A stretch of DNA of 64,000 bases from an uncultured Gammaproteobacteria bacterium (GCA_964519725.1 CAZFKS010000007.1:1221-65220); one strand, 5' to 3'. Shown: positions 8,055 to 57,742, numbered from the stretch's first letter. Numbers and translations are program-made. Notes: generated by a model not told the origin, from the letters alone.

Positions 8055-9848
8055 ATGAAGCTGACCGAACAATACGTTCCCAAAGACGTCCAAGATTTGA
8101 GTCAAATAGACAGCCCAGAAGCAACGGTCGAGTCACCGTCACCCAATATGGCTGAAATCGGCCAGCCCTCGTCTAGCTCAGACAACCCCCAGAAACTGCG
8201 CTCCCAACTAGACGAACTTGATCGGCAACTAAACTCAAGCATTTTTGCCAAAAAGGATAATCTTCCACACCTTGAGGCGTTATATAGTCGAACCAAGGCA
8301 AGACGTGATGCTATTGCCGAACAAATAACTGAAATCGAAGAAAAACCTCGACGCGAGGCCGAAGCTGCTGAATTGGCCAGAAAACAAGAAATTGTAAAAA
8401 ACATCCGCGAAAAAACCAAACAAAAAATTGATTTCTTTACCAAACTCAGAAATACCCCCGAACCTTCACCTTACCAATCGTCAGAGGACCGTGATTTTAT
8501 TGAAGCCGAATTGGCTAAAATCGATCAAATCATACCAATCATGACTGAAGCGATTGTTGATCATCGTTCAGCTCGCAGCAACTTAGCACAAGAAATGGAA
8601 GCAAAAATCCGCAATTATGAAAAAATTCGTCATGCGTACTACGAAGATTTAATTGCCCTTGAAGAAAAAGAACGGGACAGTGAAATTAATCAGGAAATCA
8701 CTGATCTAATTAAACAAAGCCAATTACCAGCTGAGCTTGAAAACTTTGTCAGTACAGAAGAAGTAATCACTGAACTCATCAATCGTGGCTATCGGCCCCA
8801 GACTAAAAAAACGTCCCTCTCTGAAAACCTTCTGGCCATCGTTCGTGGCCAAATAGAGGCCAGCAAACAAACTCTCCTACTTAAATTTTCCGAAGTTAAA
8901 TTCGATTCAAACGGTGAGCCGCTCCTTGGTTTGTGGGGGCGTATTACAGGCAAGATCAAAACTATTAAGAATACGGCAGAATACCAAAAATTCAAACTCT
9001 TATTGGATTTTGGTAATTTTTTAACAACCAAACCACAACCCATTGAGACTGCGTCACCCAAACAACGGACTAGCAAAAAACAACAGTCACTCTCAAAACT
9101 TAGACCAATTTTAGCCTCTGGCGTAGCAGCCATAACTGCATCCAGTAATGTAGAAGAAAAAACAGACTACACACCAACTTTCGAACCAGCCGCCTCAACT
9201 ATCACTACCAACAAGAATCAAACCACTGAATCAGTTCAAGCTATTGACTCAACCCCAACCATAGTGGTTGAACCACGGACAGCCGAACCTGAAAAATCCA
9301 TGGCTTCAGCCGCCCTTGAACCAGAAGCAAACATCGTGACTAAAACTAATCCTAGTCCACGCACTCGTTCAGAAAAAACCATTCTAACTGAGGCAAAATT
9401 TACCAATCCCACCTCAAAGCGCACTGAACAGTTAATGGCTGACGCCTTTTCACCAGCCAAGAGCGTGGTTTCTGAGTCAGACAGTGAGGCCGAAGATACT
9501 GATCTAGTTGATAATACTGAAGTAAAACCACAAAAAGAGTCTAAAAAAGTATCTAAACATAAACAAACCGCCGCTGAAATTGTAGCTAGTTTAGGTCTTA
9601 ACTCAATTCCCGCCGAAATGCGCGTAGAGACAAAAGCAGTAACTGGGTTATCTGCCCCTGAATTAAACCAACTTACCAGACGTCTTCAAAAATTAGGCTT
9701 TAGTTCACCCGACCAATCTCGCATTATCAGCACTACTGCTAAACTGATTAAGGACCTATCCCCAGACAGTCGGGCCAAAAAACTGGCCTCAATTCAGCAA
9801 ATGGATTACCAGAAGCTAAGGAAGTTATTTAGAAATAGCCTATTATAG
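8055..9848 (+). CDS. Hypothetical protein. N-terminal coiled-coil region, C-terminal Ser/Thr/Pro/Lys-rich low-complexity region.
   Basis: 597-aa ORF with no recognisable catalytic motifs. It is charged and heptad-like (…RDAIAEQITEIEEKPRREAEAAELARKQEIVKNIREK…) and ends in a long S/T/P-rich tail. Confidence 0.45.
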   Translation: MKLTEQYVPKDVQDLSQIDSPEATVESPSPNMAEIGQPSSSSDNPQKLRSQLDELDRQLNSSIFAKKDNLPHLEALYSRTKARRDAIAEQITEIEEKPRREAEAAELARKQEIVKNIREKTKQKIDFFTKLRNTPEPSPYQSSEDRDFIEAELAKIDQIIPIMTEAIVDHRSARSNLAQEMEAKIRNYEKIRHAYYEDLIALEEKERDSEINQEITDLIKQSQLPAELENFVSTEEVITELINRGYRPQTKKTSLSENLLAIVRGQIEASKQTLLLKFSEVKFDSNGEPLLGLWGRITGKIKTIKNTAEYQKFKLLLDFGNFLTTKPQPIETASPKQRTSKKQQSLSKLRPILASGVAAITASSNVEEKTDYTPTFEPAASTITTNKNQTTESVQAIDSTPTIVVEPRTAEPEKSMASAALEPEANIVTKTNPSPRTRSEKTILTEAKFTNPTSKRTEQLMADAFSPAKSVVSESDSEAEDTDLVDNTEVKPQKESKKVSKHKQTAAEIVASLGLNSIPAEMRVETKAVTGLSAPELNQLTRRLQKLGFSSPDQSRIISTTAKLIKDLSPDSRAKKLASIQQMDYQKLRKLFRNSLL

Positions 9849-48641: not shown

Positions 48642-49643
48642 TTATTTCTTTTTCTTCTTGGCTGGTTTAACTTTTGGCGCTGGTTTACTTTTCTTGACCC
48701 GACTAACCCGAATTAAGCCGCCGCACGGTACAATCTCAATTCCACGTTTTTCGTATTCATCAAGGAGCAGGTTCATGCCCAGCGAGTCAGAGGACATGTG
48801 ACCAGCCATGATAACACTCAGCTGATTTTCGGTGGCCTTAGTGATCACTTCGCGATGCATGTGCATGCCAACTACAGTGCTAATTCCAAACCGAGAAATT
48901 TCTTGGTAAAGCTTGCTGGCTGGGGTGGTGCCGCCAGTCATTTCAAGGAGCATTTTACCTACCCGGTGATTTGGCCGACCAGAAACAATTTTTGGTCCAG
49001 AGCCCATACTTTGGGCATATTGATACTCAGGCAATTCTAACAGTGCTTCAATAATTTCCCCCAGAGTTTGAGGTTTAACCTTTTGCAAATAATCACCCAA
49101 AAATTTGTGCACCAAATTATCGGTAAAAGTATGGGTATTAATAAAGTTAATATCGAGCAAACGAGCAATATCAATGGTCTGATTGTGATTCATGTGATGC
49201 ACGCCCTTTTCTACTTCTGACCAACGTTCTTCAGAAATTTTTTCAGCTAGGTGCACTGGAATCCCACAGGCTTCGTAAATATCTGTGTTCATGCCCATGA
49301 CATCGTGCAAATAGGTAAGTCCTTTGCCTTCTGGGTGGTGAGCAATAACCAGGTCAATTTTTTTGCCACGCTGATTAAGCTCATTAGCTAACAAAATTTC
49401 GCCCGGGTTAATATCAATCCCAGCCAAAATTCGTTTTACTTCAGCCCCATTATCCACGTGAATAAAACTATCCAAGTATGGATTAGTTAGTTTTTCTTTT
49501 TCAAAATATTTTTTAGTAAGGTCAGACAATTTATCGTATTCCTTACGAATATTGGCTAAATACTTTTTTACCGCAGCTTCACCACGAGGATCAGCAGCCA
49601 TGGCCATTTTAATACCGACTTCAAAAATTTGTTTGATATTCAT
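48642..49643 (-). CDS. Nif3-family dinuclear metal-centre protein (YqfO/YbgI-like) with a Lys-rich tail.
   Basis: …IDLVIAHHPEG… and …VIMAGHMSSDSLGMN… match the conserved His clusters of NIF3. The C-terminus is KKSKPAPKVKPAKKKKK. Confidence 0.75.
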   Translation of the reverse strand: MNIKQIFEVGIKMAMAADPRGEAAVKKYLANIRKEYDKLSDLTKKYFEKEKLTNPYLDSFIHVDNGAEVKRILAGIDINPGEILLANELNQRGKKIDLVIAHHPEGKGLTYLHDVMGMNTDIYEACGIPVHLAEKISEERWSEVEKGVHHMNHNQTIDIARLLDINFINTHTFTDNLVHKFLGDYLQKVKPQTLGEIIEALLELPEYQYAQSMGSGPKIVSGRPNHRVGKMLLEMTGGTTPASKLYQEISRFGISTVVGMHMHREVITKATENQLSVIMAGHMSSDSLGMNLLLDEYEKRGIEIVPCGGLIRVSRVKKSKPAPKVKPAKKKKK

Positions 49644-49670
49644 ATGCTCGTTAATTACGCTGTAAATTGA

Positions 49671-51053
49671 CTAGGCTTTTGGTAAGATTTTTTTCAAGTG
49701 ATTTAATTCACTGGTAAAAATCTTAAGAATTTTTTTATCGTATTTAGCTGGTAAATTTAACCACGGACGAATGCTGGTAAAATGCTTGTAAAAAGTGCTC
49801 CACGGTGGCATTTTACTCATCTTTTCTTTACGAAACCGTTCCACATACTTTGAAGTATTACCTTTTTTAGCCAAAGCGTAGAAGCAGAAATCTAATTCAT
49901 AGGATGATCCAGATTTGTGATCTTTACCAAAGTAATTTTCAAATAAACCAGGTTCATTTAACAAATCTTTTTTATATCCAATGGTGGCTGGATCCAGCCC
50001 AACTACCCGGGCAAACAAATACATCCGGGCACACTTGTAACACTTATGGCACCACTGTGAATCCTTTAATAACGGGGCTTCGGCAGTACAAGAAAATTGA
50101 TATTGACCAAATTTTGGATAACGTAAGTGAAGAAGATCAAAAATATTTAATTGATCAATTGGTTCTAAGCTAGCTTTCACTTCACATTGTCCATGAGTGA
50201 GCAAGCGAATCATGGCATCCTGCTCCAAAGTGTAGAAACTGGTTTGGTCATAACAGATATACACTTTCCAGCCATTGTTTAAGTGAGATTCATTACTTAG
50301 ATATTCACTCCCAAAGAAAATATAATCAGCGTTGTAGGCGTAAACAAAAGGTAAAACCTGCAACGCAATTAAGGTTGTTTGTGAACCCCAGCCCACTTCT
50401 GTACCACGTTTTTTACTAAACGCAGCGTCATATCTAAATAAACCTGGGCCATTTTTTACAAAGTAAGTATCAACTTTAAATTTTTTGCCAAATTCTTCAA
50501 GTTTTTTACGCTTGTAAGTTTCCTCATAAGCCATTGATGGCTCCTGCGAATAAACCAAAATTGGTTTAATTCCTAATTCCAAACACATGGCCACAGTGGT
50601 CAAACTTTCTTTACCAAATGAAAATGGAACTACGGCAATTGGTTGTTTCTTTTTGATTTTTGATTTAGGGAATTCTTTGGGAAAAGCTGGTGTCCCTGGT
50701 TTAAAATCAAATTCCAAATTATAAAATTGTTTCAAATAAGACAGGAGCGGTGCATCATCCCACTCTTCAGACTTGGTCATGTCCATCATTTGGTTTCTAA
50801 ACAGAAAACTCTCTACCAATGGAAATTGAGTGTTGTATTTAATTCGATCATAACCAAGGGTCAATGGCAAAAAGTGAGTATCCCCAAACGTTAAGTTGTC
50901 TAACAGCATTTGTTTAGCCTCAGCCGGTACTTTTTTCCAAATTTCAATGGGGTATTCAACCAAAAAATCACGGTTTTTAACCGTAATTGCAATTCCATTC
51001 TTAGTCAGCCGACCATTGACTGAAAGAACTTTTTCCGCACTGGCTTTTGGCAT
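49671..51053 (-). CDS. Adenine-nucleotide alpha-hydrolase (PP-loop) superfamily protein, PAPS-reductase/CysH-like.
   Basis: A central PP-loop-like motif PIAVVPFSFGKESLTTVA (compare SGGxDS, or the SFG variant in E. coli CysH). C-terminal Cys cluster …CHKCYKCARM…. A roughly 140-aa N-terminal extension of unknown fold. No database search was possible. Confidence 0.45.
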   Translation of the reverse strand: MPKASAEKVLSVNGRLTKNGIAITVKNRDFLVEYPIEIWKKVPAEAKQMLLDNLTFGDTHFLPLTLGYDRIKYNTQFPLVESFLFRNQMMDMTKSEEWDDAPLLSYLKQFYNLEFDFKPGTPAFPKEFPKSKIKKKQPIAVVPFSFGKESLTTVAMCLELGIKPILVYSQEPSMAYEETYKRKKLEEFGKKFKVDTYFVKNGPGLFRYDAAFSKKRGTEVGWGSQTTLIALQVLPFVYAYNADYIFFGSEYLSNESHLNNGWKVYICYDQTSFYTLEQDAMIRLLTHGQCEVKASLEPIDQLNIFDLLHLRYPKFGQYQFSCTAEAPLLKDSQWCHKCYKCARMYLFARVVGLDPATIGYKKDLLNEPGLFENYFGKDHKSGSSYELDFCFYALAKKGNTSKYVERFRKEKMSKMPPWSTFYKHFTSIRPWLNLPAKYDKKILKIFTSELNHLKKILPKA

Positions 51054-51055
51054 AC

Positions 51056-52633
51056 TTATTCCGTAATTTGAATACTAGGTTTAATTTTCTTACTAATTCC
51101 AGTAAATTCCGCTACCTCTTCGGCGGTAATCCGTGAGAGCTCAGGTTGACGCTCAATCTCCGGGTACATTACAGGATAAAATTCGGTAAGTAAAGGATAA
51201 AATGCCTCGGCCAAAGTGATGTCTTTTGACACCTCAATAATGGTTTTCCAAGTGTCTTTTTCACCATACAAAATAAGATCCAAACCAGCTGCTAAAGTCA
51301 TTTCACCCTTTGGACCACGAAGGAAAGTGATACTTGGGCCATCTACAAATTCTTTAGTTCGAACATCCTGGCAAACCGCCACACTTTCCAGATCATTTTT
51401 TTCAGTTTGCATCTTAATGTATGCCTCTTTGAGCAAGGTAAGATAATTCACCTGGTTCGCACCACCTAAACATTTGAGTCCATAGTAAAAAGCTAACACC
51501 AAGAAAATCAGCATCATACTTGGCATAATTGTCTTGTCTTCCAGTGCCTTAGCAATTGCTTCGGGAGTCAAATCAACCGTAATTGCTCCATCATCAGAAA
51601 CTAATTTATTCCCTTGTTTCCAAAGGTGGAAACGATCATGCTTACCTGGTAACATTCCCCAAAATAAATATGTTCCCCAACCTTCTTGGCGAGAAAAAGC
51701 TCCCATGATTCCTTCAAAATATTTGTTAATTAATTCTTCTGAAGAAGGGTCAAACAAAATTTTAGAAATGGTTGTGTCTTTAAATAAGTGGTAGCGCAGG
51801 AGTAATTTAGTTACTAAAGTTTCTTGTTCAATATAAATCAAATCTGGGCGCGATAAATCACTCGGTGAAAAAAATTTTTTCCAAAGCTGGTGATTAGTTA
51901 CAGTAATTTGATCAGCGTAATTACTGAGAGCGTAAATTTCTGGTTTATCATAAATATCAGATAAAATCTGATTCAAACCAGTAGCTACCGTTTCTGTTAC
52001 CAAGCCGTTTTTAATTTTTTCTGCAATTACTTTACGTAATTTTTCTACATCATCCTGACGATAGGGCCGAAAATTATAGACTGCGGCTGAGTGGCAATTG
52101 CTTGGCAAAAACGATAAACGCTGCATTTCTACACCTTTCGGTGTCACTGAATTGAATAGTAATCCGCGAGGAAAAGAAGAGTTGTTGAGTGAAACATTGG
52201 CACATGACAAAATAATTACATTTTTCAAAATTTCGTCATGACGTTCAGCGTATGATGATGCAATAATTAAATCCGCATTCAAGAAAAATGGGTGACACAC
52301 GGGACCATGGTGATCAGACGTAGAAACAAAAAAATATTTTTCCAATTGGGCCACCGCTGACTCAGCCACTTCTGGTCCCAGCAGTCTTACCACTTCTTCC
52401 TTAAAAACTCCCAAAAAATCCGCCCGCCGGGTAATGGCCGGGGTTGGGTTAGCATCAGTGTAGTCCTGAGAATAATTGTACAAACTTTTTTGCCCGTGCT
52501 TTTCAATAATATCTTTCAAAACTGGGCGCTTAGACAGCACAGCATTTTTTAATTTTTCAAAATTGACTGCTAAATCTGAATCACTTACCGGTGCTGAAAC
52601 AACTCCCTCTTTTTCTTTTACCGCTGTGTCCAT
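51056..52633 (-). CDS. Hypothetical 525-aa protein of unknown function, apparently co-transcribed with the PP-loop protein (2-nt spacer).
   Basis: Long clean ORF with no recognisable motif. It has a conserved-looking …STSDHHGPVCHPFF… segment and one internal hydrophobic helix (IMPSMMLIFLVLAFYYGL). Confidence 0.5.
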   Translation of the reverse strand: MDTAVKEKEGVVSAPVSDSDLAVNFEKLKNAVLSKRPVLKDIIEKHGQKSLYNYSQDYTDANPTPAITRRADFLGVFKEEVVRLLGPEVAESAVAQLEKYFFVSTSDHHGPVCHPFFLNADLIIASSYAERHDEILKNVIILSCANVSLNNSSFPRGLLFNSVTPKGVEMQRLSFLPSNCHSAAVYNFRPYRQDDVEKLRKVIAEKIKNGLVTETVATGLNQILSDIYDKPEIYALSNYADQITVTNHQLWKKFFSPSDLSRPDLIYIEQETLVTKLLLRYHLFKDTTISKILFDPSSEELINKYFEGIMGAFSRQEGWGTYLFWGMLPGKHDRFHLWKQGNKLVSDDGAITVDLTPEAIAKALEDKTIMPSMMLIFLVLAFYYGLKCLGGANQVNYLTLLKEAYIKMQTEKNDLESVAVCQDVRTKEFVDGPSITFLRGPKGEMTLAAGLDLILYGEKDTWKTIIEVSKDITLAEAFYPLLTEFYPVMYPEIERQPELSRITAEEVAEFTGISKKIKPSIQITE

Positions 52634-52697
52634 AGAAATGATTAGGCGGACAAGTTTTATTTTAAATAAATAACCTCAGGATTATATCGATTTTAAA

Positions 52698-52728
52698 GCA
52701 ATTTGTCAATAACTAAAATTGACAATTG
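52698..52728. promoter_or_regulatory. Palindromic operator-like site in the divergent intergenic region between the 525-aa/PP-loop operon and the ATP-grasp gene.
   Basis: CAATTTGTCAAT-aactaaa-ATTGACAATTG. Half-sites of 10-11 bp match 10/11 and are spaced by 7 bp. The site overlaps a TTGACA hexamer. Confidence 0.35.
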
Positions 52729-54029
52729 GAGGGACGGCTGTTACGGTAAATTATATGCCAAACCCTGACCTCTCTGGGAGAACGATTTGTGTAGTTGGCA
52801 CTAGTACTCCCAATAAACAATTTGTCTTTGAAACGCTTAAAAAACTAGATCTGACTGTTATCGTTATTGAAAAAGAAAAAAATTGGGCTACCCCATTTGT
52901 GGATCACTGGATTATTGCTGACACCAGCGACCACCTTAAAACAATCAAGGCTTTTGCGGCGTTTACAAAGGAACACCCCCGCACTAAAATTAACGGAATT
53001 GTAAATTTCTGGGAAGAGGAAGTTGTCCTAACTTCTAAATTAATTGAAAAATTTGGCTTTCCTGGTACCCCCTACCCAATTGTGGAACATATCCGGAATA
53101 AACTGGCTTTCCGCAAATTTTGCAGTGAAAACAATTTACCTGTGCCCAAACACCATCGCATTCGATCCACAAAAGACCTAGACTTGGTCAAAGAAAACTT
53201 TACTTTTCCCGTGGTAATTAAACCCGCTTTTGGCGCAGGTAGTGCCTATGTCACCAAGGTTAGCCGACGGGCCAGTTTAAAGCCTACCATTGACCGGATT
53301 CGCAAAAAAATTAGCCCTGAAGTAGAAAGTACTCTTAGCGAGGGATTAGATATTTTTGTTGAGGAATTTATTGATGGGGCTGAGGTTGATATTGATATGC
53401 TAGTACAGAATGGTAAGGTCAAATTCTGTTCTGTGTCAGATAACTATGATAAAAAATTTGGTAATTCCTTTTTGGACAAAGGTCAGGCTTTACCATCTAA
53501 ACTTTCCAAAAGACGCCAAGATGTTTTGGCCACTATGGCTGAAGTCACTGTAGAAAAATTAGGAATTACTGACGCCTGCGTCCATTACGAAGCTAAAATT
53601 GGTAAAAAAGGACCAATTCCACTGGAAATTAATTTACGACTAGGTGGCGGTTGTGTGCACCGATCACTCATGCTGGCCTGGGGTGTTGATTTTGTTGAGT
53701 ACAGCACACGGATTGCACTGGGTGAATATTTTTCTCCAATTCCTAAACCCAAAAAACCATTACGTGGTTCTGTGTCACTCAACTTACAACCACCCTATTC
53801 TGGAACAGTTACTAATATTAAGATTGACCCAATGTTCTATAAAAAATCTTATTTTGAAGAATTGCACTTAGCCAAAAAAGTGGGCGACTCGATCTCTTGC
53901 CCACCTCATGGTTTTGAATGTCTAGGTTGGTTTACAGTAAGTGGTTCAGATTTAAAACAAGCTGAACATAACGCCCGAGAAGCACGTAAATTAATTACTT
54001 ACGAAATAAAACGTAGTGGAAATAATTAA
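52719..54029 (+). CDS. ATP-grasp fold ligase (L-amino-acid-ligase or carboxylate-amine ligase-like).
   Basis: …FPVVIKPAFGAGSAYVTKV…, …FVEEFIDGAEVDIDMLVQNG…, and …EINLRLGGG… are typical ATP-grasp motifs. The ORF-track start is a TTG. The ATG at 52755 (MPNPDLSGRTICVVGTS…) is an alternative. The start is uncertain. Confidence 0.72.
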   Translation: MTIGGTAVTVNYMPNPDLSGRTICVVGTSTPNKQFVFETLKKLDLTVIVIEKEKNWATPFVDHWIIADTSDHLKTIKAFAAFTKEHPRTKINGIVNFWEEEVVLTSKLIEKFGFPGTPYPIVEHIRNKLAFRKFCSENNLPVPKHHRIRSTKDLDLVKENFTFPVVIKPAFGAGSAYVTKVSRRASLKPTIDRIRKKISPEVESTLSEGLDIFVEEFIDGAEVDIDMLVQNGKVKFCSVSDNYDKKFGNSFLDKGQALPSKLSKRRQDVLATMAEVTVEKLGITDACVHYEAKIGKKGPIPLEINLRLGGGCVHRSLMLAWGVDFVEYSTRIALGEYFSPIPKPKKPLRGSVSLNLQPPYSGTVTNIKIDPMFYKKSYFEELHLAKKVGDSISCPPHGFECLGWFTVSGSDLKQAEHNAREARKLITYEIKRSGNN

Positions 54030-56926
54030 ACTTTGTGAATTGCTACCGTTACAGTAATATCAGAAACTTCTTTGGTTTCGCCGCTAACTCCAACCTCTAA
54101 ATTATTAGCCAAAACCGCTGTTAAAATTTCTTCCTTAAATTCAGTCAGGGCGTGATTAAGTTTTTCACTTTCAGTAGTAAATTCAATTTTGATTCGATCT
54201 TGAATAGTTAGGCCAGCATCTTTGCGCATTTGATTGATAGTCCGAATAAATTCTCGAGCCAGACCTTCTTTTTCTAAGACTTCGGTAATTTCCGTGTTAA
54301 GTGAAACAGTTAGCGCGCCATCAGTTTTAACCACGGCGTAGCGATTGTCACCAACACTGACTTTTTTGACATTCAATTCATCAGCTATGATCAAGGTCAT
54401 TTCTTCGGATAAAACCGTACCCCTCACATCAAATTCACCCAGAACCTGACGAACTTTTACTCCAGCTTCAGAGCGGAGTGAGAGACCCATTTCCACAATC
54501 TTACGCACGGTTTGCATTTGTTCTAGAACCGATTCATTAACTGATTTTTTATTTACTTCTGGCCACATCTCCAGGTGCACACTTTTTTTACTACCACTCA
54601 CTTCTTGCCACACTTTTTCGGCCACAAACGGCGTAAATGGTGCCATAACTTTACTGAGGGTTGCGAGTACCTCACGGAGCGTTGTGAGTGCAGCCAGTTT
54701 ATCTTTTTCATCACTACCTTTAAAACGATCGCGTGACCGGCGCACGTACCAAGTCGACAATTCATCAATAAATTCCGCGACTGGACGTGAGGCTTCAGAC
54801 AAATTATACGCTTCCATTTCGCGCGTTACATCAGCAATTAAATTCTGTAGTTTAGCAAGAATCCACTCATCAAGAATATTTGTCGATTTTACTTCAGTCA
54901 CTTTTTCAGTCGCAAATAATTTGTAGAATTCTACAACGTTCCAGAGTGTATTCACTACTTTTCCGTACGCTTCGCGTACCCCATCTTCGCTAAAGTTTAA
55001 ACTTTCGGCATGCATGACTGGTGAGGTAATTAAATAATACCGCAGTGCATCAGCCCCGTATTTTTCTAGGAGCACATTCGGATCTGGATAATTTTGCAAT
55101 TTTTTACTCATCTTTTTTCCATCTTCAGCGAGTACAATTCCGTTCACAATTACATTTTTGAAAGCTGGTTTGGCAAAAATTGAAGTGGATAGAACATGTA
55201 AGTAATAGAACCAGGCGCGAGTTTGATCTTGCCCCTCAGCAATAAATTCCGCTGGGAAGCTATCCTCAAATTTCTTCTTGTTTTCAAATGGATAATGCAT
55301 TTGCGCGTATGGCATTGAGCCCGAATCAAACCAAGTATCGAGCACATCAGGTACGCGTTTCATAGTTCCACCGCACTTACATGGCACAGTTACCAAATCA
55401 ACCACATGTTTATGTAGGTCTTCAATCTTTTGTCCACTCGCCTCTTCTAAATCTGCAGCAGAGCCAAATACGCGCATTTCCGCACACTTTTCACACTTCC
55501 AAATTGGCATCACACTGGCCCAAAAACGCTGACGAGAAATTGACCAATCGCGCGCACCAGCCAGCCATTGGCCAAATCGGCCTTCTTTAATATGGTCTGG
55601 CGACCAATTGATTTTTTCCGCTTGTTTCAATGCTTCGTCTTTGACCGCTGTCACTTTTACAAACCAAGATGAAGTTGCGTAATTCAAAAGTGGAGTATCA
55701 CAGCGCCAGCAGTGTGGGTACGAGTGGGTGAGATTTTCTTTGGCAAAGAAGTAATTATTTTCTTGTAAATATTTAAGTACAGCAATGTCAGCACCAAGAC
55801 GAACTTTATCATCATCAGATTTTGGTTTGACTTCCAAGCCAGCAAACACCAAAACTTCTGGTTTAAATCGACCATCCATGCCAACATGTTGCACAAATGG
55901 AAGTCCAACTTTTTTACCCAGTTCCCAGTCATCAGCCCCAAAGGCCGGTGCCTCGTGCGCAACCCCCGTACCACTGTCATCAGTCACAAAATCAGCAGCG
56001 TAAATTTTCCAACCATTTTCCCGATTGTTCAATTTTTCATCTTTTGCGTAATAGTCAAAAATTGGTTCGTACGAAAGACCAACTAAATCTTCACCAGCCA
56101 TTTCTTTTTCTACTGAAAATTCTTTATTGGCAAAAACTTTTTCCACCAAAGCTTTGGCAACAATAAAATAGTTTTCTTCAGATTTTACCAAAGCATAATT
56201 TACTTTTGGACCAACTGCGAGCGCGACATTTCCTGGCAATGTCCAAGGAGTAGTAGTCCAGGCTACAACGTACACATTTTCCACTCCAAATTTTTCCGCA
56301 GCATTTTTCAACTTAAATTTTACGTACACCGAAATATCTTTGACATCTTTATAGCCTTCGCTCACTTCTTGTTGTGAAAGCGTCGTTTCACAGCGCGGGC
56401 AAATGTGCATGGCGCGATAGTCCTGATAAATCAAACCCTTGTCCCACAATTGCTTGAACACCCACCACACTGATTCCATGTAATCACGACTCATGGTTAC
56501 GTACGCATGTTCCATATCAACCCAGCGACCGAGCCGGCGCACAGTTTTTTTCCAATCTTCTACATATCCCAACACTTTGCTGCGGCAACGTTCGTTAAAT
56601 TCGGCCACCCCCATGGCTTCAATTTCTTTTTTAGTTTTTGTACCCAATTCTTTTTCAACAATGTTTTCAATTGGGAGTCCATGACAATCCCAACCCCAGA
56701 CCCGTTCAACTTTAAATCCGCGCATAGTGAAGTAGCGCGGCACAGCGTCTTTCATGAGTGAAGCCACAATGTGACCATAGTGTGGGAGACCAGTCGCAAA
56801 CGGCGGACCATCGTAAAATACATATGGCTTATTATCTGGCCGCTCATTTACTGACCGCTCAAAAACCTGATTGGCTTCCCAATATTTTAAAACTTCTTCT
56901 TCGTGCTGGCTGGCTGAATATGGCAT
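54026..56926 (-). CDS. ileS: Isoleucyl-tRNA synthetase (type 2 or eukaryote-like form).
   Basis: …YDGPPFATGLPHYGHIV… (HIGH region) and …KKMSKKLQNYPDP… (KMSKS). 966 aa. Confidence 0.97.
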   Translation of the reverse strand: MPYSASQHEEEVLKYWEANQVFERSVNERPDNKPYVFYDGPPFATGLPHYGHIVASLMKDAVPRYFTMRGFKVERVWGWDCHGLPIENIVEKELGTKTKKEIEAMGVAEFNERCRSKVLGYVEDWKKTVRRLGRWVDMEHAYVTMSRDYMESVWWVFKQLWDKGLIYQDYRAMHICPRCETTLSQQEVSEGYKDVKDISVYVKFKLKNAAEKFGVENVYVVAWTTTPWTLPGNVALAVGPKVNYALVKSEENYFIVAKALVEKVFANKEFSVEKEMAGEDLVGLSYEPIFDYYAKDEKLNNRENGWKIYAADFVTDDSGTGVAHEAPAFGADDWELGKKVGLPFVQHVGMDGRFKPEVLVFAGLEVKPKSDDDKVRLGADIAVLKYLQENNYFFAKENLTHSYPHCWRCDTPLLNYATSSWFVKVTAVKDEALKQAEKINWSPDHIKEGRFGQWLAGARDWSISRQRFWASVMPIWKCEKCAEMRVFGSAADLEEASGQKIEDLHKHVVDLVTVPCKCGGTMKRVPDVLDTWFDSGSMPYAQMHYPFENKKKFEDSFPAEFIAEGQDQTRAWFYYLHVLSTSIFAKPAFKNVIVNGIVLAEDGKKMSKKLQNYPDPNVLLEKYGADALRYYLITSPVMHAESLNFSEDGVREAYGKVVNTLWNVVEFYKLFATEKVTEVKSTNILDEWILAKLQNLIADVTREMEAYNLSEASRPVAEFIDELSTWYVRRSRDRFKGSDEKDKLAALTTLREVLATLSKVMAPFTPFVAEKVWQEVSGSKKSVHLEMWPEVNKKSVNESVLEQMQTVRKIVEMGLSLRSEAGVKVRQVLGEFDVRGTVLSEEMTLIIADELNVKKVSVGDNRYAVVKTDGALTVSLNTEITEVLEKEGLAREFIRTINQMRKDAGLTIQDRIKIEFTTESEKLNHALTEFKEEILTAVLANNLEVGVSGETKEVSDITVTVAIHKV

Positions 56927-57129
56927 AAAAAATAAAAACCACTCTTAGGTGTTGAGATCCCATCGCGTTTGCGAGGGAGGTACCATCTCAACTTTGCCAA
57001 GTGGCCTTAATTACAGCGTTACGGGCTTATCCGAGAGGGTCTACTTCCCTGGCTAGGGAATCTTCCTCTAGCGCTCCCCGGTCGAACCGGGGATTCCTGC
57101 TGATGACAGGTCTGGCGCTTTTATATGTT
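56927..57129 (-). promoter_or_regulatory. Candidate T-box leader (Ile specifier) upstream of ileS.
   Basis: Read on the minus strand: a specifier hairpin CCUG-UCAUCAG-CAGG presents AUC followed by A (plus strand 57096-57110). A GC hairpin CCCCGG-UUCGA-CCGGGG and an enclosing short helix form a 3-way junction. The antiterminator is helix A1 GUUGAGA/UCUCAAC, the 7-nt bulge UGGUACC (plus strand 56979-56985, with N'=U matching the A73 discriminator), and helix A2 CCCUCGC-aaac-GCGAuGGG. I found no clean downstream terminator, so regulation may be translational (a CCUCC anti-SD-like tract in A2). Confidence 0.5.
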
Positions 57130-57269: not shown

Positions 57270-57575
57270 ATATAAATAAAAAAGGTTTGCCGACTGGAGG
57301 GAGTCGGCTTAAGGCAGGCGCTTCAAAATACGGGTCGCGAACAGACCCGTTGCACAGAAGCGACAGTCACAGGTGGGAGTTTTGTGACGAAAAAGCGGTT
57401 GCGTTTCAGTCACCACCGCGGCCAGTGGGTCTGGAGACTCACCAGCTGCGTGCAGAATGTCGTCCACGAAAAAGAATCGAACCGGGTGACGGACCGTGTC
57501 TGGAAGTTCCAGATCATAGAGCAAAAGACCAGCCAGACGGTGGACTTGCTCATTGTTATTTGTCTTCACTTTCCC
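57270..57575 (-). ncRNA. Unclassified structured RNA candidate: a GC-rich, hairpin-dense noncoding island of roughly 300 nt. Strand is inferred as minus from terminator placement.
   Basis: Local GC is about 55% against about 40% in the flanks. At least 8 stable hairpins, for example GCCGACU-ggaggg-AGUCGGC, ACGGGU-cgcgaacag-ACCCGU, GCGGU…ACCGC, UCUGG-aaguu-CCAGA and UCUUCA…UGAAGA. The ORFs listed here (57287..57604 on the plus strand, 57309..57569 on the minus strand) have no protein-like composition. By eye I could not match RNase P, tmRNA or SRP consensus motifs. Confidence 0.35.
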
Positions 57576-57742
57576 TCCTGAAGAGAGTGCCTATCATTAT
57601 TTAACCAATAAAATTGGCTTATTTCAAGATATTTTTCCCGAAAAAGTGCATGAACTTGTGCGCAAAGTTGTGCAAAAACTGTGGACGCGTCCAAGATTGT
57701 CCACCCTATGGCCCCATGCTATAATAAAATCAATAAAACCAT

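Follow-up and report, generated by a model that had tools for sequence, protein, structure and literature searches.

Enzymes of the family of QueC, the 7-cyano-7-deazaguanine synthase, are recognised by an SGGxDS loop, a C(x)8CxxCxxC zinc motif and the motifs YxQxHxxE, VPxRN and YPDC, and they use ATP to amidate a substrate, to form a nitrile or to ligate the substrate to an amine (PMC13329287). According to recent work, the QueC scaffold has been repurposed several times. Besides BL00235 and BacD/YwfE, the L-amino acid ligases of the ATP-grasp superfamily include TabS and RizA. An ATP-grasp ligase is combined with a PP-loop amidotransferase or synthetase in the pathways of dapdiamide (DdaF and DdaH) and tabtoxin (TabS and TblS, with the LysA-like TabA), where the ATP-grasp enzyme makes the peptide bond and the PP-loop enzyme adenylates a carboxylate to yield an amide or a lactam. 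The tabtoxin pathway also includes enzymes resembling those of the DAP pathway.

The locus described here lies in a 64-kb window (the whole stretch of DNA that was analysed) from a reduced-genome Patescibacteria/CPR bacterium, whose closest relatives are Magasanikbacteria MAGs. The ORF listing of the window contains exactly the three reading frames delimited by an earlier, sequence-only reading of this DNA: 49671..51053 (minus strand, 460 aa), 51056..52633 (minus strand, 525 aa) and 52719..54029 (plus strand, 436 aa). They are hereafter called A, B and C, and since each has many full-length homologues they are genes and not chance ORFs. The same reading had placed them among housekeeping genes in a reduced genome, which agrees with the host and with the flanking genes for IleRS, a NIF3-like protein, RuvA and GyrA. 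Searches against Rfam gave no match in the window or in eight related loci, save tRNAs elsewhere. The genes and features of the locus are as follows.

49671..51053, minus strand: gene A, 460 aa, uncharacterised family
50031..50090, minus strand: Cys cluster C322-x12-C335-x2-C338-x2-C341 of A, putative Zn site
50604..50621, minus strand: variant PP-loop S-F-G-K-E-S, residues 145-150 of A
51056..52633, minus strand: gene B, 525 aa, co-directional with A and 2 nt upstream of it
52301..52315, minus strand: motif D-H-H-G-P, residues 107-111 of B
52681..52709, minus strand: predicted sigma-70-type promoter TTGACA-17-TATAAT, 12/12 match, facing B and A
52703..52725, no strand assigned: inverted repeat TTGTCAAT-N7-ATTGACAA between B and C, two diverging TTGACA boxes
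52755..54029, plus strand: gene C, 424 aa from ATG 52755 (longest ORF from TTG 52719)
53211..53243, plus strand: ATP-grasp signature VVIKPAFGAGS of C, intact
53361..53384, plus strand: ATP-grasp signature EEFIDGAE of C, intact
53625..53648, plus strand: ATP-grasp signature EINLRLGG of C, intact

Protein A belongs to a family of 84 clusters. It is composed of an N-terminal family-specific domain (residues 1-130), a QueC-like PP-loop ATPase core (approximately 139-345) and a C-terminal helical domain. Its structure model is confident and has the fold of QueC: QueC and Cap9 are the top matches, followed by other PP-loop enzymes that form adenylates, namely ThiI, LarE, YcfA, TilS, TtuA, nitrile synthetase and the NAD/GMP synthetases. 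The PP-loop, which reads S/T-F-G-K-E-S across the family, sits between strand 139-143 and helix 148-159 of the secondary structure; in 43 family sequences, F144, G147, K148, E149 and S150 never vary and F146 hardly ever does. The assignment of A to the PP-loop/AANH superfamily, made earlier from the SFGKES motif, is borne out. Because a Phe replaces the canonical Gly of the loop and a Glu replaces the Asp, we only infer that A uses ATP. The C-terminal Cys cluster, also noticed from the sequence, comprises four residues (322, 335, 338 and 341), all invariant among the 43 members, and it is probably a Zn site, by analogy with the C(x)8CxxCxxC motif of QueC.

A shares with QueC, Cap9 and QatC (PF06508) the PP-loop after the first strand, a YxQ element after the second and a C-terminal four-Cys cluster ending in CxxCxxC. 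It nevertheless differs from QueC in many respects. The loop is S-F-G-K-E-S instead of SGGxDS, and the first Cys spacing is x12 instead of x8, a spacing that differs in QatC too (x19) (PMC13329287). Of YxQxHxxE, A keeps only Y-x-Q followed by E-P...E (VYSQEPSMAYEE), lacking the H and E of the motif, and the family consensus contains no equivalent of VPxRN or YPDC. A is also twice as long, with its additional N- and C-terminal domains, and its partner is an amino-acid ligase and not QueD/QueE, a TGT-like protein, a CD-NTase or QatB. When A and the 43 family members were compared with Pfam, PF06508 included, no QueC match was obtained at E<=1; NCBIfam and PADLOC, searched with A singly and with the 43 members, gave nothing usable, and sequence and profile searches of the PDB with A gave chance-level matches only, QueC not among them. 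Alignment of the A family with QueC by hhalign was not significant (probability 0.33%), although it set the A loop on the SGGQDS of QueC. The sole recurrent weak match was DUF6395, in the C-terminal domain of six A members (best E 0.0011), and a literature search found no paper mentioning this domain. The PAPS reductase/CysD/DndC family (PF01507), which had been thought closest in kind to A, has in common with it the PP-loop alpha/beta ATPase superfamily, but the Cys cluster of A is of the QueC type, PF01507 went unmatched in the A family (one of the 43 members at E 0.08) and QueC and Cap9 are the top folds; this kinship was consequently not upheld.

The third protein, C, is readily placed. 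For Pfam it scores 76.4 bits against ATP-grasp_4 (PF13535; cut-off 27, 2.4e-21), 43.2 bits against PF02655 and, over residues 357-430, 34.2 bits against LAL_C2 (PF18603; cut-off 29.4, 3e-8). Its best sequence matches in the PDB are the BL00235 L-amino acid ligase (3vot, 1e-23), 4wd3 (2e-11) and BacD. Judged by sequence, C is an ATP-grasp of the L-amino-acid-ligase type, in line with the amide-forming ATP-grasp proposed at the outset: it has the ATP-grasp_4 core and LAL_C2 of BL00235 and BacD/YwfE, with the nucleotide- and Mg-binding stretches intact. The reading frame and strand first given for C stand, but its true start is probably not TTG 52719 but ATG 52755 (424 aa), because orthologue alignments open at residues 15-18 and the gene as called publicly has 424 aa. 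C differs from the known L-amino acid ligases in being only distantly similar to any characterised member, and in that most of its relatives are fused to a Ddl-like second ATP-grasp, after which A follows. To our knowledge, no characterised L-amino acid ligase has a Ddl-like fusion followed by a QueC-like protein. Over its full length C is 41-48% identical to the N-terminal halves of these ATP-grasp fusions of approximately 800 aa, and from its sequence it is classed as the orthologue of the N-terminal (LAL) half of the fusion preceding A in most relatives.

The pairing of A with C was counted for 44 A genes in 41 Patescibacteria loci from many candidate phyla. In 30 of the 44, A lies directly downstream of a C-type ATP-grasp gene on the same strand, with a median gap of 3.5 nt and frequently a 4-nt overlap; another 10 bring the A genes with a C orthologue at most three genes away to 40/44. 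Independent public gene calls with Pfam labels give the same arrangement. A and C are thus a conserved pair across related lineages, as had been supposed from the window. In the window itself, C is inverted relative to A and the Ddl-like half has been lost. Fuller clusters in relatives add the fused Ddl-like domain (186.7 bits), a dipeptide-epimerase-like gene resembling L-Ala-D/L-Glu epimerase (189.9 bits), a LysA-like decarboxylase gene (144.9 bits) and a second ATP-grasp; MR_MLE, Orn/DAP/Arg decarboxylase and GNAT Acetyltransf_6 domains are also found, and all family scores of these accessory genes are under the curated cut-offs. One cluster gene (c4, approximately 365 aa) had no match in Pfam, NCBIfam or the PDB. 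By tblastn, the 64-kb window contains A and C only, the remainder of the extended cluster being absent. In the two closest relatives an ATP-grasp gene is missing from the locus, which suggests that A may work without an adjacent C, and distant A-like proteins exist without any ATP-grasp. Literature searches found no paper in which QueC-like proteins and ATP-grasp are combined, and no relevant one on dipeptide epimerase and ATP-grasp in Patescibacteria.

Protein B had been described as lacking any recognisable motif. This is correct at the sequence level: B and 47 family members gave no BshC model at E<=1 and nothing usable from Pfam and NCBIfam, PADLOC gave no match for B, and sequence and profile searches of the PDB yielded chance-level matches only. 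Curated families therefore cover neither A nor B, as anticipated. The fold of B, in contrast, is recognisable. Its matches are BshC, the cysteine-adding enzyme of bacillithiol synthesis, and class I LysRS, and like the BshC structure it has a Rossmann core carrying CP insertions; on the model, B has a BshC/class-I aminoacyl-tRNA-synthetase-like fold, and it does not resemble DndD, DndE, DpdA or DpdB, for which a check had been proposed. B is also close to BshC in length (525 versus 540 aa), but it differs from BshC, MshC and the class I synthetases in that the TM-score is only 0.41 and there is no sequence-level match to BshC or synthetase models. In the D-H-H-G-P motif, D107, H108, G110 and P111 are invariant; the loop that carries it connects Rossmann strand 1 (102-104) to the next helix (115-126), a position that would correspond to the HIGH motif of class I synthetases. 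No clear KMSKS counterpart was identified in B, nor a synthetase match in Pfam. The activity of BshC has never been reconstituted (PMC4360819), so the analogy yields little mechanistic detail.

The B family is large in Patescibacteria (>326 clusters), and its surroundings vary. No neighbour proved to be conserved, and the best cluster of neighbours was present in 7 of 55 loci; C forms a singleton cluster among the neighbours, and those clustered from 56 B loci included neither the glycosyltransferase BshA nor the deacetylase BshB of the bacillithiol pathway. DapF-type racemase genes nevertheless directly adjoin B in four loci (L064, L113, L121 and L124), a class IV aminotransferase gene adjoins it in three and ATP-grasp genes of other families in seven, and in P0102 B is fused to a DapF/histidine-racemase-like domain. 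These recurrent neighbours counter the idea that B is a random neighbour without thematic relation. B probably ligates amino acids at the expense of ATP, in a role of its own; its theme, amino-acid or D-amino-acid ligation, is in common with A/C, of which it is not an obligate partner. B may nevertheless be functionally linked to A/C, since here it would be co-transcribed with A (2-nt gap, shared predicted promoter) and elsewhere it often adjoins ATP-grasp genes.

The neighbourhood across related genomes does not bear out a conserved trio. B adjoins A in three genomes only, namely the window and its two closest relatives (L007 and the P0002 contig, with A 72-76% identical), whereas 54 of the 56 B loci examined have no A or C orthologue nearby. 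As a unit the three genes are not conserved; B is a separate enzyme that stands beside A/C in this lineage only. The 2-nt interval from the B stop to the A start, noted earlier, is real, but the co-directional string runs on past A and B into the genes for the NIF3-like protein and RuvA, leaving intervals of 27 and 1 nt, so that tight spacing here also joins unrelated genes. The intergenic region between B and C (85-120 nt) contains the palindrome that had been taken for an operator-like site. The inverted repeat exists, but it equals two diverging -35 boxes, with a TTGACA in each arm, and the operator reading was rejected; back-to-back promoters explain the palindrome at least as well. The TTGACA of the minus-strand arm belongs to a 12/12 sigma-70 consensus (52709..52681), which as a consensus match is unique within 49400..54300 and predicts a promoter. 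The chance occurrence of an inverted repeat of 8 bp is only mildly improbable where the DNA is AT-rich.

Amino-acid or peptide ligation combined with amidation is the most likely role of the locus, and of the roles listed in the sequence-only reading the evidence favours that in small-peptide or cell-envelope ligation. We see about an even chance that the locus consists of a fixed module of C and A, beside which an independent B has moved in, with an amidated small peptide as the probable product. As a member of its family, C would activate the carboxylate of one amino acid as an acyl-phosphate and join it to the amino group of another, so that a dipeptide-type amide results. The fold and genomic coupling of A are what suggest its step: by analogy with QueC and Cap9, it would adenylate a carboxylate with ATP, and a nitrogen nucleophile would resolve the acyl-AMP to give an amide, as expected from the likeness to QueC, Cap9 and QatC (PMC13329287). 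The nucleophile would most likely be ammonia, giving a carboxamide or possibly a nitrile, or else an amine, and the carboxylate would most likely come from the substrate or product of C. We know of no amidation or ligation of an amino acid or peptide by a QueC fold, which has so far been tied to deazapurine chemistry. The logic proposed for C and A is that of the dapdiamide and tabtoxin pathways; however, the PP-loop enzymes of those pathways are of the asparagine-synthetase type and not QueC-like, their genes form secondary-metabolite clusters of Proteobacteria, and the sole sign of homology is the weak DdaF family score of C (E 1.8e-6, far under the cut-off). In the fuller clusters the A/C pair would act with the Ddl-like ligase, the dipeptide-epimerase-like enzyme, the LysA-like PLP decarboxylase and the second ATP-grasp; these partners suggest that the product is most likely a small, possibly D-residue-containing, amidated peptide, which could be a building block of the cell-wall-peptide type or a peptide metabolite. 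A tentative extension supposes that Patescibacteria have a pathway separate from the Mur ligases in which a short peptide with D residues is assembled, epimerised and amidated, to serve as a stem-peptide building block of the cell wall or as a new peptide metabolite. In such a pathway A would perform ATP-dependent carboxylate amidation or ligation on an amino acid or peptide, and B would be a second new type of ligase, BshC-like and acting on D-amino acids in the same organisms.

The other explanations differ in the partners or substrates that they give to A. B, A and C could all belong to one pathway, in which three carboxylate-activating ligases make one peptide-like product and B supplies or attaches an amino acid, which might be of the D form. 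In favour of this, the genes B and A, separated by 2 nt, would share one predicted promoter of perfect consensus that diverges from C, all three folds are of ATP-dependent ligase types, and the genes recurring beside B, for ATP-grasp enzymes (7 loci), class IV aminotransferases (3 loci) and DapF-type racemases (4-5 loci, with one further case of fusion), repeat the theme of the A/C cluster. We still consider a single pathway rather unlikely, because only three genomes, closely related to one another, have B next to A, the ATP-grasp genes beside B elsewhere are of families other than C, the B family far exceeds that of A (>326 versus 84 clusters) and the string continues into the NIF3-like and RuvA genes. 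A conjugating ligase of the Cap9/QatC kind, which would join a carboxylate made by the ATP-grasp to an N-terminal amine of a peptide or protein in a RiPP-like or protein modification, is improbable. It would account for the short ORF, encoding the conserved motif [DE][DE]Q?P.?P, that precedes the ATP-grasp/A operon in 8 of the 22 long-leader relatives. However, a terminator hairpin follows this ORF and conservation is limited to a motif of 5-6 residues, features more in keeping with the leader peptide of an attenuator than with a substrate; no such ORF lies in the short B/C intergenic region of the window, the LAL_C2 domain of C is typical of free-amino-acid ligases, and there are no defence-system partner genes.

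We regard as highly improbable the nucleic-acid modification or anti-phage defence module, similar to Dnd, Dpd or 7-deazaguanine systems, that the sequence-only reading had also offered. The PAPS-reductase/CysD family has the PP-loop motif S-x-G-K-[DE]-S, which the loop of A resembles; the QueC fold is employed in Dpd, CBASS IV and Qat systems, and the GC content of the three genes (36-40%) is slightly below the 42.8% of the window. Against this, PADLOC had no match for A, B or C, the locus is flanked by housekeeping genes with no nuclease, helicase, TGT-like or DndA/D/E gene nearby and no Dpd partner, A is devoid of the deazaguanine-binding motifs of QueC, and the partner that stays with A throughout Patescibacteria is an amino-acid ligase. 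The faintest prospect is that A is a tRNA-modification enzyme like TilS, ThiI or TtuA, functionally tied to the neighbouring isoleucyl-tRNA synthetase. IleRS does adjoin the module in eight loci, but this adjacency is restricted to one clade, with variable orientation, and was rejected as functional; moreover, QueC and Cap9 clearly outscore the tRNA enzymes as fold matches of A, Pfam detects no known RNA-binding domain (THUMP, PUA or similar), and the constant partner of A is an ATP-grasp ligase.

The A and B families have no Pfam or NCBIfam model, and consequently their members are annotated 'hypothetical' everywhere. With the role in peptide ligation and amidation favoured here, A would carry the QueC scaffold to non-deazapurine substrates. 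B is a large uncharacterised relative of BshC, whose own mechanism remains unsolved, and the fusion of B to an amino-acid racemase offers a concrete way of finding out what is ligated by this fold. In Patescibacteria, with their very small genomes and scarce biosynthetic pathways, the retention of a multi-ligase module across many lineages suggests that it is probably important to these episymbionts for building or modifying the envelope or for making a key metabolite.

The ORF listing returns the same coordinates as a sequence-only reading that had proposed a divergent three-gene modification or ligation system:

49671..51053, minus strand, gene A, PP-loop protein of 460 aa
51056..52633, minus strand, gene B, protein of 525 aa
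52719..54029, plus strand, gene C, ATP-grasp ligase, 436 aa as the longest ORF

Homology searches recovered numerous full-length homologues of each, and all three are therefore genuine genes. ATG 52755 is the most likely start codon of C, giving 424 aa, since orthologue alignments begin at residues 15–18 and the public gene call is 424 aa long. The GC contents of the genes (36.4%, 38.5% and 39.8%) are somewhat below that of the window (42.8%). The spacing between B and A measures 2 nt, as claimed; alone it is weak evidence for a functional link, because the same co-directional string continues past A into NIF3-like and RuvA genes (gaps of 27 and 1 nt). The palindromic site between B and C is present as an inverted repeat (52703..52725, TTGTCAAT-N7-ATTGACAA), but the two arms correspond to TTGACA boxes that diverge from each other, and the reading of the repeat as an operator was set aside for back-to-back promoters. 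The minus-strand box belongs to a perfect consensus promoter, TTGACA-17-TATAAT, directed at B and A. The nearest relatives are Magasanikbacteria MAGs and every related locus comes from Patescibacteria/CPR lineages, so the suggested reduced-genome context stands.

Positions 56927-57125 (minus strand) form the 5' leader of ileS (54026..56926), conserved in alignment with four related loci (L008, L009, L013 and L049). Its core, AGTAGA..CGGGTAAGCCCGT..GCTGT..GRTGGTACCG, recalls the UGGUACC element of T-boxes, and a terminator-like hairpin with a T-run lies downstream of it. Even at E<=10, Rfam's T-box model gave no match to this leader, which is possibly a patescibacterial riboswitch of atypical T-box-like form. 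Between ileS and rpiB, a GC-rich, unannotated stretch (57287-57604) holds overlapping ORFs of 105 aa (plus strand) and 86 aa (minus strand) and gave no Rfam, tRNA or tmRNA match; relatives carry other, unrelated small genes at this position. A search of the full 64 kb (1-64000) found no tRNA or tmRNA genes and no Rfam family at the gathering threshold.

Protein A carries the SFGKES loop (residues 145-150) and C-terminal Cys cluster (Cys 322, 335, 338 and 341) noticed earlier, all invariant in 43 family members. Searches of A against Pfam, NCBIfam, PADLOC and PDB (by sequence and by profile) returned nothing. The AlphaFold model built from 43 homologues is confident (pLDDT 93.3, pTM 0.92), and on this model the core (approximately residues 139-345) is taken as QueC-like. 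The superfamily had thus been correctly named, but not the nearest relatives, given as PAPS reductase and DndC. The N-terminal domain ahead of the core is family-specific; the C-terminal domain behind it is helical and, in a few members, scores weakly against DUF6395. The hallmarks of QueC are SGGxDS, YxQxHxxE, VPxRN, YPDC and C(x)8CxxCxxC (PMC13329287). In the 43 A sequences compared, SGGxDS is replaced by S/T-F-G-K-E-S, YxQxHxxE by Y-x-Q-E-P and the cysteine motif by C-x12-C-x2-C-x2-C, and VPxRN and YPDC are both absent; an hhalign comparison with QueC falls short of significance (probability 0.3%), yet it aligns the two P-loops with each other. Consequently, A uses the QueC scaffold yet falls outside PF06508, and it is predicted not to bind deazaguanine in the QueC manner.

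A profile of the A family found 1135 relatives at E<=0.001 among 1.84 billion representative proteins, including 167 at E<=1e-30, and most share the ~450-aa architecture. The wider family extends beyond the ligase-coupled setting, since L133 (4886-7347) and L132 (459-1853) encode remote A-like proteins (profile E ~1e-40) with no accompanying ATP-grasp. One of the two genes overlaps a PhyH-type dioxygenase gene at the latter's stop codon; an 85-aa ORF comes before the other, whose contig also has EutA and ALS small-subunit genes.

The identification of C as an ATP-grasp ligase is borne out by Pfam matches to ATP-grasp_4 (76 bits) and, over its cut-off, to LAL_C2, the L-amino-acid-ligase C-terminal domain (34 bits). 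The best PDB sequence matches are the L-amino acid ligases BL00235 (1e-23), 4wd3 and BacD, and the ATP-grasp stretches VVIKPAFGAGS, EEFIDGAE and EINLRLGG are intact. No NCBIfam equivalog reached its cut-off.

A and C form a fixed pair across Patescibacteria. We called, clustered and classified the ORFs around 44 A genes (41-44 loci, species-representative genomes). A C-type ATP-grasp lies directly upstream of A on the same strand in 30 cases (median gap 3.5 nt, several 4-nt overlaps) and within three genes in 10 more; the remaining four A genes lack such a neighbour, and one of them sits at the end of its contig. The layout recurs in independent public gene calls that carry precomputed Pfam labels. 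In most lineages the partner is an ~800-aa fusion, whose LAL-type N-terminal half is 41-48% identical to C over the full length of C and whose C-terminal half resembles Ddl (Dala_Dala_lig_C 122 bits; NF002378 186.7 bits, under its cut-off of 243). Further genes often join the pair:

Additional genes of the extended A/C cluster
LysA-like PLP decarboxylase: 21 loci
enolase-superfamily protein, closest to L-Ala-D/L-Glu epimerase: 20 loci
~365-aa protein of unassigned family: 12 loci
second ATP-grasp, ~430 aa: frequent
Acetyltransf_6-type GNAT and SET-domain protein: sometimes

None of these additional genes was found in the 64-kb window, whose clade, like L008-L010, has only the minimal pair. The order in L008-L010, all on one strand, is IleRS, ATP-grasp, A, NIF3-like, RuvA; relative to it, C is inverted and B inserted in the window. 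One Magasanikbacteria lineage (L001, L002 and L049) has an enlarged cluster with peptidases: downstream of A lie a 309-aa protein that scores weakly as radical SAM (9384-10313 in L001/L002) and, beyond it, a second complete double ATP-grasp of ~760-795 aa, a SET-domain protein and peptidases of the M17 and U32 families.

The domain and fold assignments, invariant motifs and genomic coupling are established here. From family chemistry, C would form first an acyl-phosphate and then a peptide bond, and A would generate an acyl-adenylate on a carboxylate of C's substrate or product. This adenylate could be resolved by ammonia or an amine, on the model of QueC, whose substrate CDG becomes ADG and then preQ0, and of Cap9, where a protein amine is the nucleophile. 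Judging by cluster content, the product would be a short peptide, open to epimerisation, Ddl-like/ATP-grasp extension and decarboxylation.

Of the 22 relatives whose leader ahead of the ATP-grasp/A operon reaches 120 nt or more, 8 have an ORF of 15-37 aa there that shares an acidic-proline motif, [DE][DE]Q?P.?P (DDPDP, EEPDP, EEPEP, DDQPP, EDQPP and others), a pattern defined only after inspection of the data. Third-codon positions vary synonymously, which points to conservation of the peptide itself. Behind the ORF stands a terminator-like hairpin with a T-run; in L008 the ORF spans ~8547-8651 and the hairpin 8648-8679, with equivalents in L009, L010, L015, L018, L020, L021 and L049. Neither element matched an Rfam family.

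Such an ORF would suit a role of A as a Cap9/QatC-type peptide- or protein-conjugating enzyme, but it is missing from the window and, trailed by a terminator, looks like a proline-stalling attenuator leader peptide and less like a substrate; we regard conjugation as unlikely. The defence or nucleic-acid-modification role raised earlier is very improbable: PADLOC was blank, partner genes and deazaguanine-binding motifs are missing, and the flanks are housekeeping genes. That A modifies tRNA is scarcely credible, as the fold scores of tRNA enzymes fall below those of QueC and Cap9, Pfam finds no known RNA-binding domain, and adjacency to IleRS is limited to one clade.

The family of protein B is strongly conserved (mean column identity 55%) and has long invariant stretches, including STADHHGP, NNSSFPRGL and YYGLKCLGG..QVNYLT; the matches listed comprise more than 326 clusters, all from Patescibacteria. 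Pfam, NCBIfam and profile searches gave no annotation. In Foldseek, its confident model (pLDDT 90.3) has BshC as sole significant match (E 3.4e-7, TM 0.41), followed by LysRS-I. The invariant DHHGP falls in the loop after the first Rossmann strand, ahead of the next helix, and by position would be the counterpart of the class I synthetase HIGH motif. The presumed role of BshC is the addition of cysteine to GlcN-malate, an activity never reconstituted (PMC4360819). Five loci (L059, L067, L082, L093 and L095) carry a shorter paralogue (416-477 aa) in tandem directly downstream of full-length B, which may reflect a hetero-oligomer or recent duplication; the window has a single copy.

The neighbourhoods of B only partly support a three-gene system: A and C are coupled, but B adjoins A only in the window, L007 (A 72% identical) and the contig of the homologue P0002 (A 76%). 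In the latter two, B fills the slot between IleRS and A, with no ATP-grasp there. In a set of 56 B loci, each 5 kb or longer and most taken from a metagenome scan, A and C lie near B only in the window and L007, and no neighbouring family exceeds seven loci. A ~255-aa DapF-superfamily racemase (PDB 6l4l/6jis, 4e-13; histidine racemase 9cr6, 7e-11) is the immediate neighbour of B in four loci, downstream or overlapping in L064, L113 and L121 and upstream in L124. In P0102 (846 aa; one 6.1-kb metagenomic contig) a DapF/histidine-racemase-like domain is fused to the C terminus of B; this may be a gene-calling or assembly artefact of a single contig, and the association is supported by the separate adjacent genes in L064, L113 and L121. 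The precomputed PF26317 label on P0102 was not reproduced by hmmscan. Other neighbours are a class IV aminotransferase downstream (L079, L089, L095), two ATP-grasp families other than C's abutting B (seven loci) and a convergent PBP2-type transpeptidase (five loci). In about a quarter of B loci an amino-acid racemase, aminotransferase or ATP-grasp lies within two genes. From these coherent, recurrent neighbours we take B to be an independent, probably amino-acid-activating ligase that relocates within an amino-acid, probably D-amino-acid, ligation neighbourhood, possibly related to the envelope. The shared ligation theme would fit a functional link between B and C in the window, but the close spacing counts for little in a string running into NIF3-like and RuvA; such a link is doubtful, though conceivable, and is not required.

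The folds and reaction types at this locus are already known. No curated model exists for the A or B family, and a literature search found no description of a QueC-like/ATP-grasp pair. What is new is the A family and its constant pairing with an amino-acid ligase across Patescibacteria, together with the BshC-like family of B and its fusion to a racemase.
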